Below are positions 2,634 to 12,846 of a stretch of 64,000 nt of DNA, piece after piece. A model generated the notes under the pieces. That model did no database searches. It was not told the origin of the DNA and was given only the letters and a program-made list of their open reading frames with translations. Each line of letters begins with the position of its first letter. The stretch's first letter is position 1. Source of the DNA: a virus; the IMG/VR virus record IMGVR_UViG_3300009159_000033; one strand, 5' to 3'. The position numbers were made by a program, and so were the translations under genes.

Positions 2634-2975
2634 ATGATACCTTTCAAAACTCGAGTGGCAGTCCAGCTCAGTGTAGATGACCCGCACGATTTAGAACCTA
2701 TCAAACAAGCTTACTGCGTACTCGTTGAAGTTCATATGAACTTTGAACTTGAAGCTATGGTTGCTGTGTTTAAGTGCTGGAAGAGTGAACAAGCATTCCT
2801 GTCTGACCGCAAAGCATTTCATACCATTCAAGTACCTTTCCCTCCCGAAGAAGGGGGCAAGGTATTCTTTGAAAAGTGGGGAACAGATGAAGCAAGCGTA
2901 AAGCTAAGCGAACATTTGCGAAACCACTGTCTGCGTCATTCAGCCCTAGCAAAAGCAAAGGTCGTAAGTGAGTAA
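2634..2975 (+). CDS. hypothetical protein
   Basis: 113 aa ORF in operon, overlapping the next start. Confidence 0.6.
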   Translation: MIPFKTRVAVQLSVDDPHDLEPIKQAYCVLVEVHMNFELEAMVAVFKCWKSEQAFLSDRKAFHTIQVPFPPEEGGKVFFEKWGTDEASVKLSEHLRNHCLRHSALAKAKVVSE

Positions 2976-4929
2976 GACTCAGCTTGTTATCAAGCACAAA
3001 TGGGCACTAGGCGATACAGTGCTGCTAACTGCACTCGTTCGTGATATTCAGCTAGCCTACCCTAATCAGTATCAAATCGTAGTAAACACCAACTGGAGTA
3101 ATGTTTGGTGGAACAACCCCCATGTTGTGCGGTCTGACGCAGCTGCATCAAGTCAAGCAAAGCATGTAGAGGTAAGCTGGGGAGATGCTATTCGCTGGAA
3201 CTCCTATGCCAAATATGATGACCGCCGTGAGATGAAACATATCCTAGCTTGGTATCACTATGACTTTGAACGCAAAACCGGCATTCATGTCCCAGTGACG
3301 AAACCTCGCCCAGACCTACACATGTCGGAACAAGAGTTAAATTCCAGAATTGAAGGACGCTACTGGGTTATCTTATCTGGAGGTAAACTAGACCTAACTG
3401 CTAAGCACTGGCATGCTCATCGAGCACAAGAGGTGGTAGATAAGTTATTAGCAAAAGGTATTCATTGCGTACAAGCTGGGGCAACCCACACCAACCACAT
3501 ACATCCGCCATTGCAGAACACTACAAACATGCTTGGTAAAACTGAGAATGTAAGAGATTTATGGAATATCATTCGCTATGCTGATGGTGTGATTTGTGGG
3601 GTAACTGGTGCAATGCATATTGCAGCAGCTTTTGAAAGACCCTGTGTGGTTTACGCAGGCGGGCGAGAAGACCCTTGGTTTGAAGCCTATGTAAATGCTT
3701 TCCAAGCTTTTGGGCCAACTGCTGAACCTGTGAAAGTAGAACACAAGTTTTTACACACTATTGGATTACTAGAATGCTGTGCGAATCAAGGGTGCTGGAA
3801 GAACAGAACAGTAGCATTAGACCCACAGGATCTAACACGCAAAGCACACACGCTCTGTCGGCAGCCACTTCGCACCGCTCCTCATCCGGTACCGAAATGC
3901 CAAGACTTAATTTCATCGGATCATGTAGTAGAGGCAGTTATGGACTATTACGATAAGTCGGTATTACCCCCTATTAAAATTGTGGATAACCCTGCTCCAA
4001 CTGTAAGCATAGTACGAGTGCAAGAGGGTAACCCCATAACAACAGAAATGCCTATAAAGATTGTGCGAGAGCCCTCCACCCCTATCAAGGAACAGAAACC
4101 TTTTCAAAAGGTTCATCCACTAGAACTAACAAGTGTAGGAGTGGGGCAGATACAACGGCAGTTGCCTCTCATGGATAACCCAATAATCGGGGGTAGGATT
4201 ACTATCTGTGTCCTTTGCTATGGTCCGCATCCACAGCTCGCCAAGACTTGCCTATCCAGCATTCTAGCCACCATTCCGCCCGAACGATTAGACTTGCGCA
4301 TTGGGCTTAATGAAGTGCACCCCGATACTTTTGCTTACGTGAAAACATTACCGGTTACAAAGATCTACGCAAACAGTCTTAACCGCTATAAGTATCCTGT
4401 CATGCGAGATATGTTCTGGGATGAGCAAAGACCTATTACCACGAACTATGTAGTATGGTTTGACGATGATACTTGGGTAGTTAATCCAAACTGGATCAAT
4501 GATCTATGCCAGACCATCATAGATAATCATCCTAAAAATTATCGTATGTTTGGTTCTTTATTGTACCATGATTTAACAATGTATGCTAAAAATGGCAACG
4601 ACCCATCTATTTGGTTTAAGACTGCTGACTGGTACCAAGGTCGTAATTTTCGCATGCGTGGCAGTCAGAAAGAGCAAGCAAATGGAAGTGTAATAGACTT
4701 TGCAACAGGATGGTGCTGGGCTGCAGCTACGGAAGCTATTCGTAAAGCGAACATCCCAGATGTAAGGCTTGGGCATAATGGTGGCGATATCGCATGCGGA
4801 GAAGCAATGCACCAAGCTGGCTTTGGTATTAAGCAATGGAATATGGGCAAAGCATTAGTAGCTTGCCCAAGTAAAGTTGATGGCGGACGAAGAGGTTATT
4901 CTGAAAAATTCCCATGGGCAAGCGAGTAA
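2968..4929 (+). CDS. two-domain glycosyltransferase: GT9 (heptosyltransferase-like, GT-B) fused to a GT-A-like domain
   Basis: N-terminal ALGDTVLLTALVRDI, ADGVICGVTGAMHIAAAFERPCVV (GT9 pattern); C-terminal ITICVLCYG...VVWFDDDTW (DxD-type GT-A). Confidence 0.75.
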   Translation: MSKTQLVIKHKWALGDTVLLTALVRDIQLAYPNQYQIVVNTNWSNVWWNNPHVVRSDAAASSQAKHVEVSWGDAIRWNSYAKYDDRREMKHILAWYHYDFERKTGIHVPVTKPRPDLHMSEQELNSRIEGRYWVILSGGKLDLTAKHWHAHRAQEVVDKLLAKGIHCVQAGATHTNHIHPPLQNTTNMLGKTENVRDLWNIIRYADGVICGVTGAMHIAAAFERPCVVYAGGREDPWFEAYVNAFQAFGPTAEPVKVEHKFLHTIGLLECCANQGCWKNRTVALDPQDLTRKAHTLCRQPLRTAPHPVPKCQDLISSDHVVEAVMDYYDKSVLPPIKIVDNPAPTVSIVRVQEGNPITTEMPIKIVREPSTPIKEQKPFQKVHPLELTSVGVGQIQRQLPLMDNPIIGGRITICVLCYGPHPQLAKTCLSSILATIPPERLDLRIGLNEVHPDTFAYVKTLPVTKIYANSLNRYKYPVMRDMFWDEQRPITTNYVVWFDDDTWVVNPNWINDLCQTIIDNHPKNYRMFGSLLYHDLTMYAKNGNDPSIWFKTADWYQGRNFRMRGSQKEQANGSVIDFATGWCWAAATEAIRKANIPDVRLGHNGGDIACGEAMHQAGFGIKQWNMGKALVACPSKVDGGRRGYSEKFPWASE

Positions 4930-4933
4930 TAAA

Positions 4934-6043
4934 ATGAAGAAGATTGGCTTATGCATGATTGTTAAAGACGAGAGCAAAGTAATTAAAAGGTGTCTTGATA
5001 GCGTCAAGCCACTGATAGACTATGTCTGTATTGTGGACACTGGTTCAACCGATAACACGATTGAGCTAATCTTATCTTGGCTTAATGAAAATAACATACT
5101 AGGTAAGGTAATCACAGAACCTTGGAAAGATTTTGCACACAACCGCACCTCCGCACTTGCACACATCCGTAAGCAAGTTGACATGGACTATGTATTGATG
5201 ATCGATGCAGACGAAACCTTGGTGTACGATATTGACTTTGATGCCGATAAGTTTAAACAAACTATGGACAAAGATCTTTACATGATTAAGTGTCATCACG
5301 ATAACATCGTGTTTGATCGTCTATCTATTACAAAGAATGAAAAACCTTTTATATACAAAGGTGTCTTGCACGAGTATGTAGATTGCGAAGAACCAATAGA
5401 AACTAGAGCTGTGTTACTTGGTGTTCGCAACACCACACCACACGATGGGGCAAGAAGCCAAATCAATAAGTTTGAGAATGATGTGGCTATCTTTGAGAAT
5501 GCTCTTCTGACTGAAACAGATCCATTCTTAATAGCAAGGTATACATTCTATCTCGCACAGTCATTCCGAGATCTTAATCAAGATGCCAAAGCATTAAAGT
5601 TTTATCTTGAAAGATCGACAAAGGGTTTCTGGTCTGAAGAAGTCTTTATGTCTCTTTTAAACGCAGCAAGATTGAAAGAAAAATTAAAGTACAAGGATGA
5701 GGATATTATTCAAAGCTACATGCAAGCACATGAGGTAGCCCCCCATAGGATTGAAGCCTTACATGGAGCAGCAAAGTTTTGTCGCACAAGCTCAAAATAC
5801 CATCAAGCTTACATCCTTGGTAAATGGGGACAAAGCCTTCCAGTGCAAAAAGATGGGTTGTTTGTGGAAGCTTGGATCTGGGACTATGGTATAGACGATG
5901 AAGTTAGCGTAAGTGCTTACTGGTCGGGACACTACGAAGATGGGGCAAAAATTTCTAAAGAACTTTTAAAAAAGATACCAGAGAAACATTTGGACAGAAT
6001 TAAACAAAATCTTATCTATTTTGAAGGTAAACTCAAATGCTGA
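4934..6043 (+). CDS. glycosyltransferase family 2 with TPR-like C-terminus
   Basis: KIGLCMIVKDESKVIKRCLDSV, DTGSTD, MIDADE, KGVLHE, RYTFYLAQS; start moved to ATG 4934. Confidence 0.85.
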   Translation: MKKIGLCMIVKDESKVIKRCLDSVKPLIDYVCIVDTGSTDNTIELILSWLNENNILGKVITEPWKDFAHNRTSALAHIRKQVDMDYVLMIDADETLVYDIDFDADKFKQTMDKDLYMIKCHHDNIVFDRLSITKNEKPFIYKGVLHEYVDCEEPIETRAVLLGVRNTTPHDGARSQINKFENDVAIFENALLTETDPFLIARYTFYLAQSFRDLNQDAKALKFYLERSTKGFWSEEVFMSLLNAARLKEKLKYKDEDIIQSYMQAHEVAPHRIEALHGAAKFCRTSSKYHQAYILGKWGQSLPVQKDGLFVEAWIWDYGIDDEVSVSAYWSGHYEDGAKISKELLKKIPEKHLDRIKQNLIYFEGKLKC

Positions 6044-6360
6044 TTTTTGACCACAATATAATGCATACATTGTGGCAAGATCCTCTATTCTGGGAATGCG
6101 TACCCTGCCTTGAAAACTACCGAGAAGAAGCAGAGCAAGTGGCTGTACAAGCAAATATTGTGCAAAGTAGTCTAAAAGTAAAACAGAGTTTATTGTATAC
6201 TCAATGGCTACAACTGCTGCAAGAATGGGTAACAGAGCAGCCAGACAAGGTAGGACAGCTAGTAGCCTACATTCAACAGAAACGACAGCATTGTATGGAA
6301 GACATTACGCTACCGCTTATGCTGGGGCAGAAAGCTCAAGTGTTTCTTTTTAGGAAGTAA
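6037..6360 (+). CDS. hypothetical protein
   Basis: 107 aa ORF overlapping the previous stop. Confidence 0.6.
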   Translation: MLIFDHNIMHTLWQDPLFWECVPCLENYREEAEQVAVQANIVQSSLKVKQSLLYTQWLQLLQEWVTEQPDKVGQLVAYIQQKRQHCMEDITLPLMLGQKAQVFLFRK

Positions 6361-6364
6361 TTAC

Positions 6365-7351
6365 ATGACTCGACGCATATGCCTTACACGATCTGCAACC
6401 ACCGCTACTTCATACACAAATTATGGGACCTACCGCTTACGAGTAGATGTCACTGCGGTAACCGGACCCGATATAGACGCTAATGTTTTTGTGTACCGCC
6501 GTAACCCGCCTAGTCCTTACACTACGCTATCCACGGACATATTTGAAGCTGTAGCTGGACCCCAACAGATTGCCGGTGTTCCTGCAGGAGCTCCAAATCC
6601 GGATTTGAACTGGCCTTACTATCGCCTAGATTACATTGAATTAGATGTAGCCTCCACAGCTCAAGCAGACAGTATTTGGGAAGAGATTCAAGCACAGGTA
6701 CAAGAGCTGCTCGGTGCGATGGAGCGACTAGAGCAACTACAAGTGGTTCAAACTGTGTGGCTTCCTTCTACACCTCCATGTATTACCGGCTGGGAACTTA
6801 CAAACTTTACCGGTACAACATTTAGGAATGGCAATCCTATTCCTCAAATTACAGATCAGGCAGCTTGGAATGCTGCCACAGGCCCAGGCTGGTGTTATTA
6901 TAATAATGACCCTTTGAACAATGATATTTACGGCAAACTTTACAATTGGTTTGCTGTGACTGATGCTAGGGGATTAGCTCCAGTGGGCTTCCATGTGCCG
7001 ACTCTAGCAGAATGGGTAACTTTAATCACATGCCTAGGTGGCACAGATACAGGCGGTGGCATATGGTTTGTTGCAGGGGCCAAGATGAAGACGACAGGCA
7101 CGCTTGCAAATAATGATGGGTTGTGGAATTCTCCTAATGTTGCAACAAATGAAAGTGGTTTCTCTGGAGTACCAGCTGGCTGCAGAACAGGTAGCTTTAT
7201 TAATCTTAATGCAAGAGGCAGCTTCTGGGTTTACGATCAAACTACATGTGTTAATCTTAACAATGGTGCTTCTACTGTTTACATCGGTGGCGATAGTTCA
7301 ACAGTTGGATATTCTGTACGATTAAAACAAGGTGCTCCACCTACCCCATAA
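6365..7351 (+). CDS. virion-type protein with C-terminal Fibrobacter succinogenes major paralogous (FISUMP) domain
   Basis: TFRNGNPIPQ, YGKLYNWFAV, LAPVGFHVPTLAEW, NESGFSGVPAG, GYSVR are FISUMP hallmarks. Confidence 0.75.
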   Translation: MTRRICLTRSATTATSYTNYGTYRLRVDVTAVTGPDIDANVFVYRRNPPSPYTTLSTDIFEAVAGPQQIAGVPAGAPNPDLNWPYYRLDYIELDVASTAQADSIWEEIQAQVQELLGAMERLEQLQVVQTVWLPSTPPCITGWELTNFTGTTFRNGNPIPQITDQAAWNAATGPGWCYYNNDPLNNDIYGKLYNWFAVTDARGLAPVGFHVPTLAEWVTLITCLGGTDTGGGIWFVAGAKMKTTGTLANNDGLWNSPNVATNESGFSGVPAGCRTGSFINLNARGSFWVYDQTTCVNLNNGASTVYIGGDSSTVGYSVRLKQGAPPTP

Positions 7352-7814: not shown

Positions 7815-8480
7815 GTGAATATTATACAATCTAAGTTGACGGCCTACATCAATCCAACGTCGGACGGTGAGGGACGAGAGTACTCAGTTCCTGTAAAGGG
7901 GACTAGATATTCGACAGGTTGCACAAACCTCCGTGACATTCGTCACGGAAAAGACCAGCTAGACAAGGCTGCGGCCTTGTTTTGTGGGAACAACTTCTGG
8001 GCCACCCGAGTGGCACAGTTGATGGGGCAAGGGTGTCCGGTGTCTCACATCCAAAAAATGGCTGCGGAGGGTCGTGCCGCTTACGAGGCGGATCAAAAGA
8101 GGGCCGAAGAAAGGTCAGACCTTAAACGAAACATCTTTGAAAAGTATGGCGGCTGGAAAAAGTCGTACTTGGCTAACACGGCCAAGTGGCGTGAGATGAT
8201 CGAGGAATTTAGGGAAAACCATTTCTTGGAAGAGGCCGAAAAGCAAGAGCTCTGCCTAGCTCGTGAACTGTCGGATTGCTACGGCCCAGAGGGAGAAAGA
8301 CCCTCAAAGTTTCGGTTGGTAGACGTAAATCCGTATTACTACAACTGTGGGCATTACCCCACGTTTGTAGTGAGGGCCGTTGAAAGCGGCGGATTTGAAA
8401 CATACGAAGAGGCAGAAGCTGCTGCTTCAGTGGCTAATGAAAAAAGCCACAGAAGCTGGATACAGTTTCTGAATGGCTAA
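7815..8480 (+). CDS. hypothetical protein
   Basis: 221 aa ORF, GTG start after RBS agggag. Confidence 0.65.
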   Translation: MNIIQSKLTAYINPTSDGEGREYSVPVKGTRYSTGCTNLRDIRHGKDQLDKAAALFCGNNFWATRVAQLMGQGCPVSHIQKMAAEGRAAYEADQKRAEERSDLKRNIFEKYGGWKKSYLANTAKWREMIEEFRENHFLEEAEKQELCLARELSDCYGPEGERPSKFRLVDVNPYYYNCGHYPTFVVRAVESGGFETYEEAEAAASVANEKSHRSWIQFLNG

Positions 8481-8587
8481 ACCCCGTCCTGAGCCGACGT
8501 TAAAGGGCTCATTGTTATTATTACCCGCCCTCGCTTACCAACTAATGGTAAGTGAGGGTTTTCTTTTTTTAACTATTGGAGAATAAC

Positions 8588-8890
8588 GTGACTAAAGTAG
8601 CACTGGGTTACCATACCCTATACGGGCAAGGGAGCTATCAAAAAGATATTTTTACTCTCCTCTTTGATGATGGCAGCATTAGTGAAGTGCGGGAGGAGCC
8701 TAATGGCATACCTTGTGTATGCCATTATTTGTTTCTTGACCAGCTGGGGGTGGGGGCACGAGACTTGGTAGCGGGAAGCCGCGCCATAATTGTTGGTGAA
8801 GACCGGTGGGAAAAAGAACAAGTTGAGGCACTAAACAAACTTGAAAAAGTTTGGAAAGCTCAACGCAGATTTACAGCTACCCCAGCCTAA
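8588..8890 (+). CDS. hypothetical protein
   Basis: ORF 8576..8890; GTG at 8588 follows RBS ggag. Confidence 0.55.
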   Translation: MTKVALGYHTLYGQGSYQKDIFTLLFDDGSISEVREEPNGIPCVCHYLFLDQLGVGARDLVAGSRAIIVGEDRWEKEQVEALNKLEKVWKAQRRFTATPA

Positions 8891-8912
8891 GCCGACATCA
8901 AAGGAGGTATTA

Positions 8913-9062
8913 ATGGAAAATGTGATAGTTCAAAAATCCTTGTTTTCCGTCATCCGGCGGACAAGGTATCACTTCACAAAAGAACCAAGGTGGGAGACTC
9001 TTATCCCAGCCTTAGTTCTTTTAGTTTCAATCTTAGTTGCTTGTGCCTATTACAAGGCATAA
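8913..9062 (+). CDS. small membrane protein (C-terminal TM helix ending CAYYKA)
   Basis: ATG 8913 after aaggagg; LIPALVLLVSILVACAYYKA. Confidence 0.65.
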   Translation: MENVIVQKSLFSVIRRTRYHFTKEPRWETLIPALVLLVSILVACAYYKA

Positions 9063-9116
9063 GCAGCTAGTCCTAAGCAGGACATTAAAAGGCTTGCAGC
9101 CCTCAGCTAAATAAAT

Positions 9117-9143
9117 GGCAATTCGGTGTCATTATTATATGAG
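9117..9143 (+). promoter_or_regulatory. putative phage promoter, copy 2
   Basis: Identical to 7698..7724. Confidence 0.55.
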
Positions 9144-9220
9144 GGCAACCTTAACTATTGACCCTCGTTTACCCGCTACTGGTAAACGAGGGTTTTCTTT
9201 TAACCAAGTAGCATGGAGGA

Positions 9221-9424
9221 TTGACCATTAACGATCTACAAGTTTTTCATAGGTTAGCCGAGGGAAAGCTCACTGCTATGGAGATGTCAGCTATTCACGA
9301 CATACTCAAAAATTATGAGCCACCGGAAAGATCTTTTGCAGCTAAAGCAAAGGACATAGCAAGTGATTTACTCATATTGGCAATATCAGTATGTGCAGTC
9401 ACTTGCGCATACTACTACAAGTAA
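9221..9424 (+). CDS. small membrane protein (C-terminal TM helix ending CAYYYK), related to 8913..9062
   Basis: TTG start after ggagga; LLILAISVCAVTCAYYYK. Confidence 0.65.
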   Translation: MTINDLQVFHRLAEGKLTAMEMSAIHDILKNYEPPERSFAAKAKDIASDLLILAISVCAVTCAYYYK

Positions 9425-9539
9425 ACCATGTCCTAAGCAAGACATTAAAAGGCTTAATGATATTGTTACCCTCGTTTGCCAGCTACAGCAAGCGAGGGTT
9501 TTTTATTCGTAGTAGGTAATCGAGTAAGGAGATATCAAC

Positions 9540-9722
9540 ATGGACGATTATGAGTCGCCCGATGATGATCAGGATCACCAAGAATTTATCGCAGGGTTGG
9601 ATATCAACAACCCTGCGATAACAGAAGTTAGCAGGTGCAATTCCTGCAAAGAGGTATGGACTGGGACATACCTCGTGGAAGGCGAGTTTTATCCTCGTGC
9701 TAATTGCTGCGGGATGAACTAA
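9540..9722 (+). CDS. small Cys-containing hypothetical protein
   Basis: RBS aaggag; acidic N-terminus, CNSC...CC. Confidence 0.6.
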   Translation: MDDYESPDDDQDHQEFIAGLDINNPAITEVSRCNSCKEVWTGTYLVEGEFYPRANCCGMN

Positions 9723-10025
9723 TCTCATGTCCTAAGCAAGACGTTAAAAGGCTTTTAAAGGTAGGGGAAAGAGTTCACTTCAAGTTATCGGCCTGCCTAC
9801 TTGGCTTGATAATGATGAGGTACTGCCAACCGGCGAAGTGAACTAGTACTAATGGCTGCAAAGTTAGATATGGTAACCCACCAGAGGCAAATGGGAAGTA
9901 GATGAAAATTCTAATCGCCCTCGGCAAGGCGTTAAAAGGTCAGTCTTCATTGTAACCCCCTCACTTGAGCTACAGCAAGTGAGGGTTTTTTATTTGTAGC
10001 AAGTATCGAGCAGGGAGATATCGAG

Positions 10026-10124
10026 ATGGAATTGTTTATTTGGGTAGTTGGTTTGGTTGTGTTCGTAGTGGTTTCAGTTTACTCGGTGGACATGGCCTTA
10101 AGTGGCCTAGGTTCCCATAAGTAA
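10026..10124 (+). CDS. 32 aa membrane peptide (not in ORF track)
   Basis: RBS agggag; MELFIWVVGLVVFVVVSVYSVDMALSGLGSHK translated by hand. Confidence 0.55.
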   Translation: MELFIWVVGLVVFVVVSVYSVDMALSGLGSHK

Positions 10125-10191
10125 TTTTTTCAACCCTCGCTTGCTCGCTACAGCAGGTGAGGGTTTTTATTTGTAGCAGGGAGACTCTATC

Positions 10192-10389
10192 ATGAGTCCT
10201 TATACTTGTCCGTTCTATGGAGAGTTGTCGGAGGAGGAGGCGGAACTTTTACGAGTACCTCACGGTACTCCGGTTAAGCTAGTCAAAGAAATGCGTAAGG
10301 TTAGACGCATAATGCGTCTGGTGCTGCGAGCAGCCTCGGCTGCAATCGTGATGGTAGCGGTGGCAATTGTGGTGGTGGTATTAATTTAA
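10192..10389 (+). CDS. small membrane protein
   Basis: RBS agggag; C-terminal AASAAIVMVAVAIVVVVLI. Confidence 0.6.
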   Translation: MSPYTCPFYGELSEEEAELLRVPHGTPVKLVKEMRKVRRIMRLVLRAASAAIVMVAVAIVVVVLI

Positions 10390-10401
10390 CTTTTCAACCC
10401 C

Positions 10402-10767
10402 TTGTGTGAGGCACAAGCGCAAGGGGGTATTCTAGTGCCATGGAGATTAGCGATGACTCTGACTATGCAGTTTCAAAAGAGCGTTCAGCCGGAGGCGGGG
10501 GTTTATGACGATTCCCAAGGCACCAAGGCAAGACTCTATGCCTTGGCCCAGAAGGCCAAGCGGCTCAAAGGTAGAGGTAAACGATTGCCAAAAGGGTTTC
10601 AGTTGGATGCGTTCGACCCCGAAAAAGTCGGTCTAGATCAGGAAACCTCGGACTTTTACAGTCCCGAGCAGCTGGTAGAACTGTTCGCTCATCCACGGAA
10701 AACCGTGGATTGGGATCAACTAGACGAGCTAAATTCGATTGGTTACTTTTATACAGGAGATGAGTAA
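10402..10767 (+). CDS. hypothetical protein
   Basis: 121 aa ORF whose stop overlaps the csrA start; true start may be downstream. Confidence 0.55.
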   Translation: MCEAQAQGGILVPWRLAMTLTMQFQKSVQPEAGVYDDSQGTKARLYALAQKAKRLKGRGKRLPKGFQLDAFDPEKVGLDQETSDFYSPEQLVELFAHPRKTVDWDQLDELNSIGYFYTGDE

Positions 10768-10955
10768 TGCTAGTTCTAACCAGAAAGCCAGGTGAGATAA
10801 TTGTTCTCGACCTTGATGGTCGAGAGATTAGTGTGCACATCTTGCACACTAGTACAGGCAGAGTTTCCCTTGGGGTTGATGCCCCAAGGGAAGTAAAAGT
10901 GCGGAGAGGTGAACTCTCCGCAAACCCCGCCAAGATGGCGGGGATAGTTGGGTAA
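10767..10955 (+). CDS. csrA: carbon storage regulator CsrA/RsmA family RNA-binding protein
   Basis: MLVLTRKPGEIIVL...V.LGVDAPREVKVRRGEL matches the CsrA consensus. Confidence 0.9.
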   Translation: MLVLTRKPGEIIVLDLDGREISVHILHTSTGRVSLGVDAPREVKVRRGELSANPAKMAGIVG

Positions 10956-11092
10956 TCCCAATGGTCGCAGTATGCGATTTGTTATTGTTGCTTTATTGCA
11001 ATAATAATGAATCTCATACTGCGGCCGTTACCTTCCTATTGCTACAACGCAATGGGAAGGTTTTTTTCTTAGCTATTGGACAAGGAGATGAT

Positions 11093-12173: not shown

Positions 12174-12846
12174 GGACGCATTTGCTACACCCCTATTCCT
12201 ATTGGTAATGGATAAGTATGGCCCAGAAGCTATGCAATGGGCTCCAGAAACGATACGCATGGAGCTAGAAGCGGATTTCCAATGTGAGCTGCCTTCATTC
12301 TCCCTAGATAAAATCATGGCTGCAATTACAATTGTAACCACAAACTTCTTTTACAAGGATGTAGGTAGGTTCATATCTATCTGCAACATACTCGCAGGGG
12401 ATGACTTCAATCCCGAAGTCTTTGACCCTGCAGATACAGACGAAATGCTTCTCGGAATTACGGAAGCCATGCTTTTATGGCCTCCGGATGAAGACAAGAA
12501 TGATTCAGAATTTTGTGAAGAAATCCGAGAATACATTTCACAAATGTTAAAGGTAGAAGGTATACTTCACCCCTTCGATGTCCTGCGATTGGCGTTACCC
12601 GCCGACCAATCGGTAAATGTGGACGCAGATTACGCCGATGATCCAGAGATGTATTCTGCCATTTACCAAGTACAGCAGGGGAAGACAGACGAGACGCGGG
12701 CTATATATCTGGATAATGTCTCAGCGTTAGCTAAACAATTATCTGCGTTGTCTTTGCAAAATGGCAGCACAGAACCTATGGTTAAACAACTACAGGATAT
12801 TGTACAAAAGGCTGGGCTGGGATCTTCTCAAGGAGAAGCGTTATGA
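12067..12846 (+). CDS. conserved-looking phage hypothetical protein
   Basis: 259 aa ORF, acidic helical; overlaps the upstream ORF. Confidence 0.65.
   Translation: MVHNQLLKNLLKQAATSQLSKPVAPKMIQRTLLMSEDAFATPLFLLVMDKYGPEAMQWAPETIRMELEADFQCELPSFSLDKIMAAITIVTTNFFYKDVGRFISICNILAGDDFNPEVFDPADTDEMLLGITEAMLLWPPDEDKNDSEFCEEIREYISQMLKVEGILHPFDVLRLALPADQSVNVDADYADDPEMYSAIYQVQQGKTDETRAIYLDNVSALAKQLSALSLQNGSTEPMVKQLQDIVQKAGLGSSQGEAL

Follow-up and report, generated by a model that had tools for sequence, protein, structure and literature searches.

The stretch of viral DNA analysed here, 64,000 nucleotides from the IMG/VR record IMGVR_UViG_3300009159_000033 and hereafter called the window, carries several copies of a short RNA element, motif A, within a cluster of small genes. 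A first-pass annotation of the sequence had described the element as a pseudoknot of about 27 nt present in five clear copies and one degenerate copy. The five clear copies were all recovered on the + strand, where they span positions 8485–9942; each is 27–28 nt long and scored 34–50 bits with a covariance model (E-values of 2e-7 to 7e-12 for the 64 kb window), the best other score in the rest of the window being 11.8 bits. When the window was searched with a degenerate pattern, five matches were found against a shuffle expectation of 0.34, comprising four of the motif A copies and a site at 12572–12593 that lies on the opposite strand and contains two mismatches. The sixth copy, placed at 8888–8910, could not be upheld, as it went undetected by the covariance model even at E ≤ 10. 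Its similarity to the 3' half of motif A is limited to GACATCAAAGG, which is also the ribosome-binding site (RBS) of the gene starting at 8914; this site is at most a remnant of the 3' half (GACAUCAAAGG), now used as the RBS of that gene, and falls outside the family.

The individual copies, A1 to A5, differ in the sequence of their two stems, an outer stem (S1) and a second stem formed by loop bases and a 3' strand (S2). A1 (8485–8511, 38.3 bits) starts 4 nt past the TAA at 8478–8480, with S1 pairing CGUC at 8485–8488 to GACG at 8496–8499 and S2 pairing (U)GAGC at 8490–8494 to GCUC(A) at 8507–8511; its loop 2 is a single nucleotide (C8495) and its loop 3 is UUAAAGG. A2 (9069–9096, 41 bits) starts 6 nt past the TAA at 9060–9062 and combines S1 GUCC/GGAC with S2 AAGC/GCUU plus a U.G pair, S1 being shifted by one because loop 2 of this copy ends in G. 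The highest-scoring copy, A3 (9429–9456, 49.8 bits), begins 4 nt past the TAA at 9422–9424 and has S1 UGUC/GACA and S2 UAAGC/GCUUA, while A4 (9728–9755, 45.5 bits) begins 5 nt past the TAA at 9720–9722 and has S1 UGUC/GACG with an outer U.G and S2 AAGC/GCUU. The measured distances from the stop codon (4, 6, 4 and 5 nt) are thus close to the 5–8 nt given in the first-pass annotation, and all of its listed stem variants were found (tgtc/gaca, cgtc/gacg and cgcc/ggcg for S1; taagc/gctta and tgagc/gctca for S2). A5 (9916–9942, 34 bits) is a divergent copy with S1 CGCC/GGCG and, contrary to its earlier reading as a copy without stem 2, it retains three S2 pairs (GGC/GUC). Relative to the consensus, A5 carries double changes at the third S1 pair and at one S2 pair, and its homologue in the related locus L085 has GAC/GUC as S2. 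Unlike A1–A4, which follow small open reading frames (ORFs), A5 has no ORF end upstream. Double changes in both stems are visible among these five window copies alone.

The consensus of the element, YGUC-CU-RAGC-AN-GACR-UUAAAAG-GCUY, describes an H-type pseudoknot of 27–28 nt. S1 consists of 4 bp (YGUC/GACR), loop 1 is CU, and S2 also consists of 4 bp (RAGC/GCUY), formed by four loop bases and the four bases 3' of an A-rich strand. Loop 2 is an A plus 0–2 nt, and loop 3, the A-rich strand, is 7–9 nt long and ends in AAAAG, the last two letters of which differ in some members. Each pair was tested by scanning viral contigs with its 5' base forced off consensus and its partner left free, and compensatory change was seen at all eight core pairs in these directed scans. 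Pair 10:21 (all pairs in A1 numbering) yielded 75 distinct variants, 38 with A:U and 37 with C:G, and none was uncompensated. Pairing was likewise kept in all 11 variants at 15:33 (8 G:C and 3 G.U), in 13 of 14 at 16:32 (A:U), in 15 of 16 at 17:31 (11 U.G, 3 U:A and 1 A:U), in all three at 11:20 (2 G:C and 1 U.G), and in five of eight at 9:22. The outer pair of S1, 8:23, was C:G, U:A or U.G in 80% of cases (Fisher 4e-6), and that of S2, 14:34, was paired in 89% (Fisher 7e-7). A further set of 79 distinct sequences was gathered with a model of stem 1 only, so that S2 was outside the search model; here 97.5% of cells were paired, with changes on both sides at seven of the eight pairs, against 22–46% in slid registers. 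The proposal that the element is selected for its structure was thereby borne out, as the covariation became overwhelming in the larger alignment instead of vanishing. The pseudoknot fold of motif A is confirmed, and its structural reading is fully supported.

Across the family G.U pairs are common and A.C pairs rare, and long flanking ORFs were in sense orientation on both sides in 83 cases and in antisense orientation on both sides in one; because of these two biases, the sense transcript is taken as the folding strand. The isolated stems are weak (−2.9 and −4.2 kcal/mol), so the fold must depend on both stems together with tertiary contacts. The unpaired C12, A18 and the AAA of loop 3 were fixed by the search patterns. 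Model matches outside these patterns kept C12 and the AAA core, with a loop 3 of 7–9 nt that tolerated UU, CU, AA, UA or GC as its first bases and AG, GG, CU, CC or AU as its last two. By analogy with the compact triplex pseudoknots, whose anatomy the element shares, the A-rich loop 3 would occupy the S1 minor groove, and the invariant cytosine of loop 1 the groove of S2.

The family comprises more than 300 viral loci, with 289 members in unique contexts and 170 distinct cores. A scan of IMG/VR with exact patterns gave at least 115 loci, and a scan of prokaryotes with one genome per species only 71. The loci in host genomes, which are prophages or contigs of metagenome-assembled genomes (MAGs), fall into eight phyla: Bacillota (Bacillus, Paenibacillus, Leuconostoc, Weissella, many Lachnospiraceae and other Clostridia), Cyanobacteriota (Chamaesiphon), Thermodesulfobacteriota (Geobacter/Desulfuromonadales/Syntrophaceae/Desulfomonile), Patescibacteria (Saccharibacteria), Chloroflexota (Anaerolineae), Actinomycetota (Coriobacteriales), Nitrospirota (Nitrospiraceae) and Pseudomonadota (Methylococcales). 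Among phage groups, the element was found in Autographiviridae (T7-like), Schitoviridae (N4-like), Crassvirales and jumbo-phage contigs. Named carriers include Lactobacillus phage mv4, with a copy upstream of g20; Staphylococcus epidermidis phiIPLA7, with a copy between the minor head and scaffold genes; the T7-like Nostoc phage NMeng1, with a copy 3 nt before a tRNA-like gene; and Streptococcus Javan308, Microcystis Mwe-JY13, N4-like Vibrio phages and crAss-like phages. The element is thus phage-borne; the phages with it infect hosts of eight or more phyla and differ greatly in their transcription machinery. A BLAST search of complete E. coli genomes with a 39-nt member gave no match. The loci L415/L433 contain a divergent pseudoknot (GAC/GUC, CCGG/CCGG, UUUAAAAG) that the search patterns missed, and since the patterns would miss such forms the family is larger than counted.

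The first-pass annotation had not recognized motif A as a named Rfam family, and a search of Rfam 15 agreed, returning no family at the gathering score for the window and 31 loci, nor any at E ≤ 10 over the copies. No description of the element was found in the published literature when sequence strings and terms were searched, and the genome-language-model preprints and the hammerhead-permutation paper that were consulted concern other RNAs. In Firmicutes phages, many members precede scaffold genes of the GP20/DUF4355 type (g20 of mv4 among them), a position shared with the GP20-a and GP20-b motifs (RF02991 and RF03003) and with six csRNAs that Fremin et al. (2023, PMC10690425) reported ahead of GP20 genes. 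The GP20 motifs differ in length (72–107 nt), and their Rfam models gave no match in L036, L045, L057, L071, L190, L226, L228, L262, L354 or L378. Unless one of the unnamed csRNAs of Fremin et al. contains the same fold, the element is an undescribed and very widespread small phage RNA. Phages of Bacillus, lactic acid bacteria, cyanobacteria, Vibrio, Geobacter, Saccharibacteria and gut Bacteroides (crAss-like) share it nearly letter for letter, a degree of conservation otherwise known from riboswitches, ribozymes and tRNA. A fold of 27 nt with full covariation support and hundreds of members that has remained uncatalogued is well suited to structural and functional study, and whatever its job (nuclease block, ribosome gating, cleavage mark or binding), the element represents a general rule of phage gene organization that is absent from textbooks.

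Relative to the surrounding genes, the distance from the upstream stop codon to S1 has a sharp mode at 3–8 nt (72 of 240), and the distance to the next start is broad. Spacers of 3, 4, 5, 6, 7 and 8 nt after the stop were counted 2, 9, 10, 7, 1 and 3 times, respectively, covering all three phases. At about 57 loci, typical of Firmicutes prophages and located between the portal/minor-head gene and the scaffold gene, the element adjoins the U run of a terminator-like hairpin on its 5' side. About 32 loci resemble the window in having a terminator-like hairpin downstream, at a gap of 2–79 nt; most members have none there. The flanks are U-rich, with a T frequency of about 0.5 at 2–9 nt past S2, and save for this U-rich tract nothing is conserved beyond S2; no U run directly follows S2 in the window or the Desulfobacterota copies.

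The downstream hairpins of the window, called motif B in the first-pass annotation, are terminator-like and lie on the + strand. The one following A1 (8527–8559, with a U run) begins 15 nt 3' of the element and is followed by an RBS and a GTG start at 8589. After A2 the hairpin is at 9160–9194, with an extra hairpin at 9099–9146 in between; after A3 it is at 9468–9499, 11 nt away, and after A5 at 9958–9985, 15 nt away. The gap for these four copies thus ranges from 11 to 64 nt, and the order downstream is hairpin, RBS and next small gene. No terminator lies directly downstream of A4, and the interval between A4 and A5 (9757–9915) was unsupported as a structured RNA (z-score −0.49). In RNAfold predictions, the pseudoknot and the terminator are two independent modules with no competing helix. 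A recurrent helix between GCAUGA in the element and UCAUGC downstream was also considered and rejected, since it shows no covariation with the variable base of loop 2 and ATGC is equally frequent when loop 2 is AA. In total, seven co-directional terminator-like hairpins occur within 2.6 kb, at 8527, 9160, 9468, 9958, 10132, about 10396 (without a U run) and 11030. Between the hairpins of 8527–11061 there is no recognizable sigma-70 promoter, and the gap from hairpin to next start is just 25–30 nt; without intervening promoters, the small genes must rely on readthrough or on promoters inside coding sequence.

Other members adjoin RNA genes. In the tRNA arrays of jumbo phages the element occupies entire spacers, 0–2 nt past the discriminator of CCA-less tRNAs and 2–4 nt before the next tRNA (L318 8546–9930; L380 1690–1800; L283 7040–7200, − strand; L284; L286; and L203 4280–4680, − strand). 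L203 has five copies in a stretch of 400 nt, placed around unknown RNAs of about 100 nt, and two of these copies stand in tandem 9 nt apart. Direct tandems of two pseudoknots before one gene were also seen in L174 (6335–6400) and L188 (60–140), the second copy having UUAAACC as loop 3 and CGAGC/GCUUG as stem 2. Another arrangement was noted on Desulfobacterota MAG contigs (L172 6600–6780, and also L132, L140, L144, L179 and L181), where a conserved gene of about 496 aa without a Pfam domain has the element in antisense orientation 8 nt before its start; on its own strand, the element has a terminator-like hairpin downstream and no sense gene upstream. These copies could be independent small RNAs; alternatively, the AGGA ribosome-binding site of the gene might come from the reverse complement of the element.

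A further positional feature is an ATG exactly 7 nt after S2, that is 10 nt after AAAGG, which occurs in 60 of the 289 members (21%; ATGC in 45) against a background of about 4 per offset. It is absent from the window copies; examples are found in L008 (396–440), L168, L173, L177 and L190. The ORFs opened by this ATG are mostly 2–26 codons long and not conserved. They stop at the RBS of the next gene or overlap its start (ATGA) in L168, L173, L177 and L138, and most end 24–50 nt before the next RBS. In the N4-like Vibrio phage 1.238.A, the annotated start lies 4 nt past the element.

Comparison with related genomes showed the element to behave as a unit of its own. The block at 8484–8586, comprising pseudoknot, terminator and RBS, is 89–94% identical in the relatives L077 and L085/L098, and the genes on both sides of it are unrelated. 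The small genes at 7815–8480, 8589–8890 and 9221–9722 are replaced by unrelated ones in L098 (6740–8650) and L077; as judged from these sequence comparisons, the cassette region is hyperplastic, with small genes swapped between conserved junction modules. In a family of Bacillus prophages chosen by their scaffold protein, all relatives down to 60% identity kept the pseudoknot and its leader, and at least eight unrelated left flanks were found beside the pseudoknot, so that homology begins at its 5' edge. In more distant relatives (L434, L438, L440/L443 and L444), the slot of the pseudoknot is taken by a plain hairpin and a U run, some 100 nt ahead of the scaffold gene (start at 1201 in all of them); in these pseudoknot-less relatives, a U run and then an ATG also follow the plain hairpin. 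The distant relatives L415/L433 have instead the divergent pseudoknot with other stems. The element is an autonomous junction module between any two units. The link to the cassette genes that had been proposed for the window copies is accordingly real, though unspecific, being a property of junctions rather than of the upstream gene. With the element as crossover point, the swapping of small accessory genes between phages is explained.

A comparable arrangement is that of the PeSL (promoter-early stem-loop) cassettes of T4-type phages, reportedly described by Arbiol et al. in 2010. Both are short repeated intergenic modules around small swappable genes and serve as crossover points, and the exchange of genes was found here as well. 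The PeSL module consists of a promoter and a plain stem-loop and is lineage-specific, whereas the element is a pseudoknot of the same sequence across phage groups and phyla, and no promoter-like site was found between the window elements and the next start codon.

Once recoding and a control of the terminators are set aside (see below), the role that is left is post-transcriptional, independent of partners and exerted where units meet. The explanation that we tentatively place first, at less than even confidence, is that the element is a boundary element equivalent to a hairpin, which would define and protect RNA ends and insulate neighbouring units, with its use as a shared crossover site as a by-product. 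This explanation is best supported because of the interchange with plain hairpins, the closest placement behind the upstream unit that lies outside the terminating ribosome, and the U-rich flanks; from the position and the interchange we infer an exonuclease block and insulation, and 3'-end protection or processing is accordingly the best fit among the functional options offered by the first-pass annotation. The element would work on the sense transcript, at the border between two consecutive units, be they ORFs, tRNAs or small RNAs. It would fold immediately upon transcription and be left closed by the terminating ribosome, forming a structural stop; once endonucleases or RNase P/Z had cut the U-rich spacers beside it, this stop would define and protect the resulting RNA ends. 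Its chief effect would be to shield the 3' end of the upstream unit from 3'-to-5' exonucleases, in addition to insulating the neighbours from each other. As no phage- or host-specific partner is needed, such an element would work in any host and could spread over phyla and polymerase types. At the DNA level, a nearly identical sequence in many genomes offers a crossover point for the exchange of neighbouring genes, and the unit of pseudoknot, terminator and RBS in the window is a junction of this kind.

Intercistronic stem-loops such as REP elements, the puf operon hairpins and the RNase III sites of T7 are similar in marking the 3' boundary of cistrons in polycistronic RNA, in the interchange with a hairpin and U run, and in U-rich flanks suited to endonuclease cuts. 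They are variable hairpins, in contrast to a conserved pseudoknot whose loop bases are kept across phyla and whose protective role is putative. Several points weigh against the boundary element. Its mechanism is inferred from position, and neighbours are convergent in 11 cases and divergent in 8, about equal numbers that do not favour the upstream over the downstream unit. Eight base pairs are a weak obstacle compared with the neighbouring terminators of 12–14 bp, and the window pseudoknots precede a strong terminator already able to protect a 3' end. A passive block has no obvious need for C12, A18 and the loop 3 AAA to be so strictly conserved, and an exonuclease block right after a tRNA would hamper rather than aid its exonucleolytic maturation. 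The chief unexplained fact is the ATG at +7 in 21% of members, which suggests that ribosomes are involved. As a boundary element, motif A could potentially be built into synthetic operons as a tiny insulator or stability part that works independently of the host.

The ATG at +7 bears most directly on a translational operator, in which the pseudoknot hides an AAAGG Shine-Dalgarno (SD) sequence in loop 3/S2b and gates ribosome loading at a nearby start, often that of a throw-away mini-ORF. The fold would be constitutive, or stabilized by a ligand or protein as in the preQ1-I riboswitch and the T4 gene 32 and rpsO operators, and would affect the expression or stability of the next gene. The position of the ATG after AAAGG, well above background, suggests that this part of the 3' half can act as a ribosome-binding site, and the few mini-ORFs that end at or overlap the next RBS or start, the annotated start in Vibrio phage 1.238.A, and a size and layout like the preQ1-I aptamer with its SD in the 3' strand point the same way. 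Such an operator is nevertheless doubtful, since 79% of members lack the ATG, the terminator in the window separates the element from the true RBS, and the tRNA-pseudoknot-tRNA layouts leave no room for translation or an expression platform. In addition, tRNA-array copies, among others, have lost G30 of the SD-like run (ACU, AAU, ACC), the frequent stop of mini-ORFs 24–50 nt before the next RBS argues against general coupling, and relatives without the pseudoknot also have a U run and ATG. The same tRNA arrays speak for a processing signal or excised small RNA, which would cut itself or guide a universal RNase such as RNase P or RNase Z, dividing polycistronic phage RNA into units, and whose freed pseudoknot of about 30 nt may act in trans as an aptamer or decoy: where the element fills the tRNA-tRNA spacers, with only 0–2 nt and 2–4 nt to spare, cuts by RNase Z and RNase P would free it precisely. 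The copies bracketing RNAs in L203 and their tandem pair, the Desulfobacterota copies with a terminator-like hairpin of their own and no upstream sense gene, and loop bases conserved across phyla to the level of riboswitches and ribozymes are consistent with this, and similar slots in phages are known to hold small ribozymes. The pistol ribozyme (RF02679), which is frequent between small phage genes, resembles the element in its short hairpin, its loop pairing downstream and its A-rich linker (GUUAAA...); the pistol ribozyme continues with P2, P3 and the G-U cleavage site, whereas here the pseudoknot strand comes directly after the linker and there is no Rfam match. To our knowledge, natural self-cleaving ribozymes are all far larger than 27 nt. 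The element matches no Rfam ribozyme model, offers RNase P neither an RCCA tail nor an acceptor-like end, and has no evident conserved partner gene and, in mRNA contexts, nothing obvious to release it; for these reasons and because of its size, we consider a processing role unlikely. Still less probable in our view is that the element punctuates phage transcripts independently of the host through an intrinsic activity, either cutting itself or directing universal RNases, or being released from tRNA arrays by RNase Z and RNase P as an RNA of about 30 nt that acts in trans. If true, the first option would represent the smallest ribozyme or processing tag in nature, and the second, as a miniature aptamer or decoy for a conserved signalling molecule or host factor, the first RNA 'sponge' of a phage.

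A riboswitch aptamer that senses a ligand and acts on the terminator or RBS beyond it would account for the succession of pseudoknot, terminator, RBS and gene found four times in the window and also at other loci, and the element has strongly conserved unpaired bases and an architecture like that of the preQ1-I and SAM-II pseudoknot aptamers. The preQ1-I riboswitch is the smallest known riboswitch, with about 34 nt. Its family (RF00522) shares with the element the H-type fold, an A-rich 3' strand, which in preQ1-I lies in the minor groove of P1, an SD-like purine run at the beginning of the 3' stem and, sometimes, a following terminator; it differs in its conserved bases, its overlapping expression platform and its link to queuosine genes, the element instead flanking tRNAs and unrelated genes, and the PreQ1 model gave no match at E ≤ 10 in the window (8300–10500) or in L036 (2380–2540). 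Sensing is very improbable, given that no antiterminator or overlapping pairing with the terminator was found (the GCAUGA/UCAUGC helix not covarying with loop 2), that terminator spacing varies from 2 to 79 nt, that the downstream genes are unrelated in function (scaffold proteins, tiny membrane proteins, tRNAs), and that tRNA-flanked copies have no expression platform. We give equally little credence to a signal acting on RNA polymerase, either put- or nut-like antitermination at motif B, as the first-pass annotation had suggested, or a pseudoknot-type terminator with a U-rich tract. The co-directional hairpins of 8527–11061 without promoters imply that some readthrough is needed, four of them are preceded by the element, many members have a U-rich tract after them, and the slot is occupied by a plain terminator in relatives; most members, however, have no downstream terminator, there is no alternative pairing with the terminators, and a single processive signal would do where five copies occur in 1.5 kb, unlike HK022 put and lambda nut with one site per operon. 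Set beside an intrinsic terminator, a G+C-rich hairpin with a U run immediately after it, the element gives a mixed picture: it is no hairpin and its stems are weak, many members have the U-rich tract, the window and Desulfobacterota copies lack a U run directly after S2, and a true terminator stands in the slot in relatives. T7-like, N4-like and crAss-like phages transcribe much of their genomes with their own RNA polymerases, and the presence of the element in these phages and inside tRNA arrays also speaks against a signal to the host polymerase. Least credible of all is a site that acts only as DNA (in recombination, attC-like, or by binding protein) or a stimulator of recoding by readthrough or frameshifting. 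The crossover behaviour between swapped genes would fit a DNA site, yet the crossing fold covaries, with many G.U and few A.C pairs, the orientation is strictly sense, and no recombinase is linked. The post-stop spacing of 3–8 nt equals that of recoding pseudoknots, and the frameshifting pseudoknots of the luteovirus type, that of beet western yellows virus being 28 nt long, are strikingly similar in size, with two short stems, a loop 1 of 2 nt starting with C, one or two junction bases, a 7-nt A-rich loop 3 able to form minor-groove triples with a G-C-rich stem 1, and a location few nucleotides downstream of a decoding event. The element has the same compact H-type fold with short loop 1 and A-rich loop 3, and all of its pairs covary; it is unlike them in belonging to DNA phages rather than plant RNA viruses, and there is no sequence relation. 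A slippery heptamer 5–9 nt upstream with an overlapping −1 frame was not found; the element follows TAA in any phase and also tRNAs. Readthrough, another of the functions initially proposed, was likewise rejected, because the stops occur in all three phases, the downstream frames close within few codons and copies also lie beside tRNAs.

As for the wider context, nearly all long ORFs of the window share one strand and encode, among others, glycosyltransferases, a DNA methyltransferase/primase-like protein and an ATPase; the window has the appearance of a phage or another mobile element. A BLAST comparison of the 3-kb motif A region with named phages gave no match. Just upstream of the cassettes, the region 2968–7351 encodes a family 9 glycosyltransferase-like protein, a family 2 glycosyltransferase and a Fibrobacter succinogenes major domain protein; the family 2 glycosyltransferase belongs to the PHROG category 'moron/host takeover'. 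The motif B terminators at 9454–9507 and 9896–9993 gave sub-threshold matches to the Rfam family NsiR1 of Nostocales (18–20 bits against a gathering score of 39). Together with the family members in Nostoc and Microcystis phages, these weak matches are a faint hint of a cyanobacterial host for the window.

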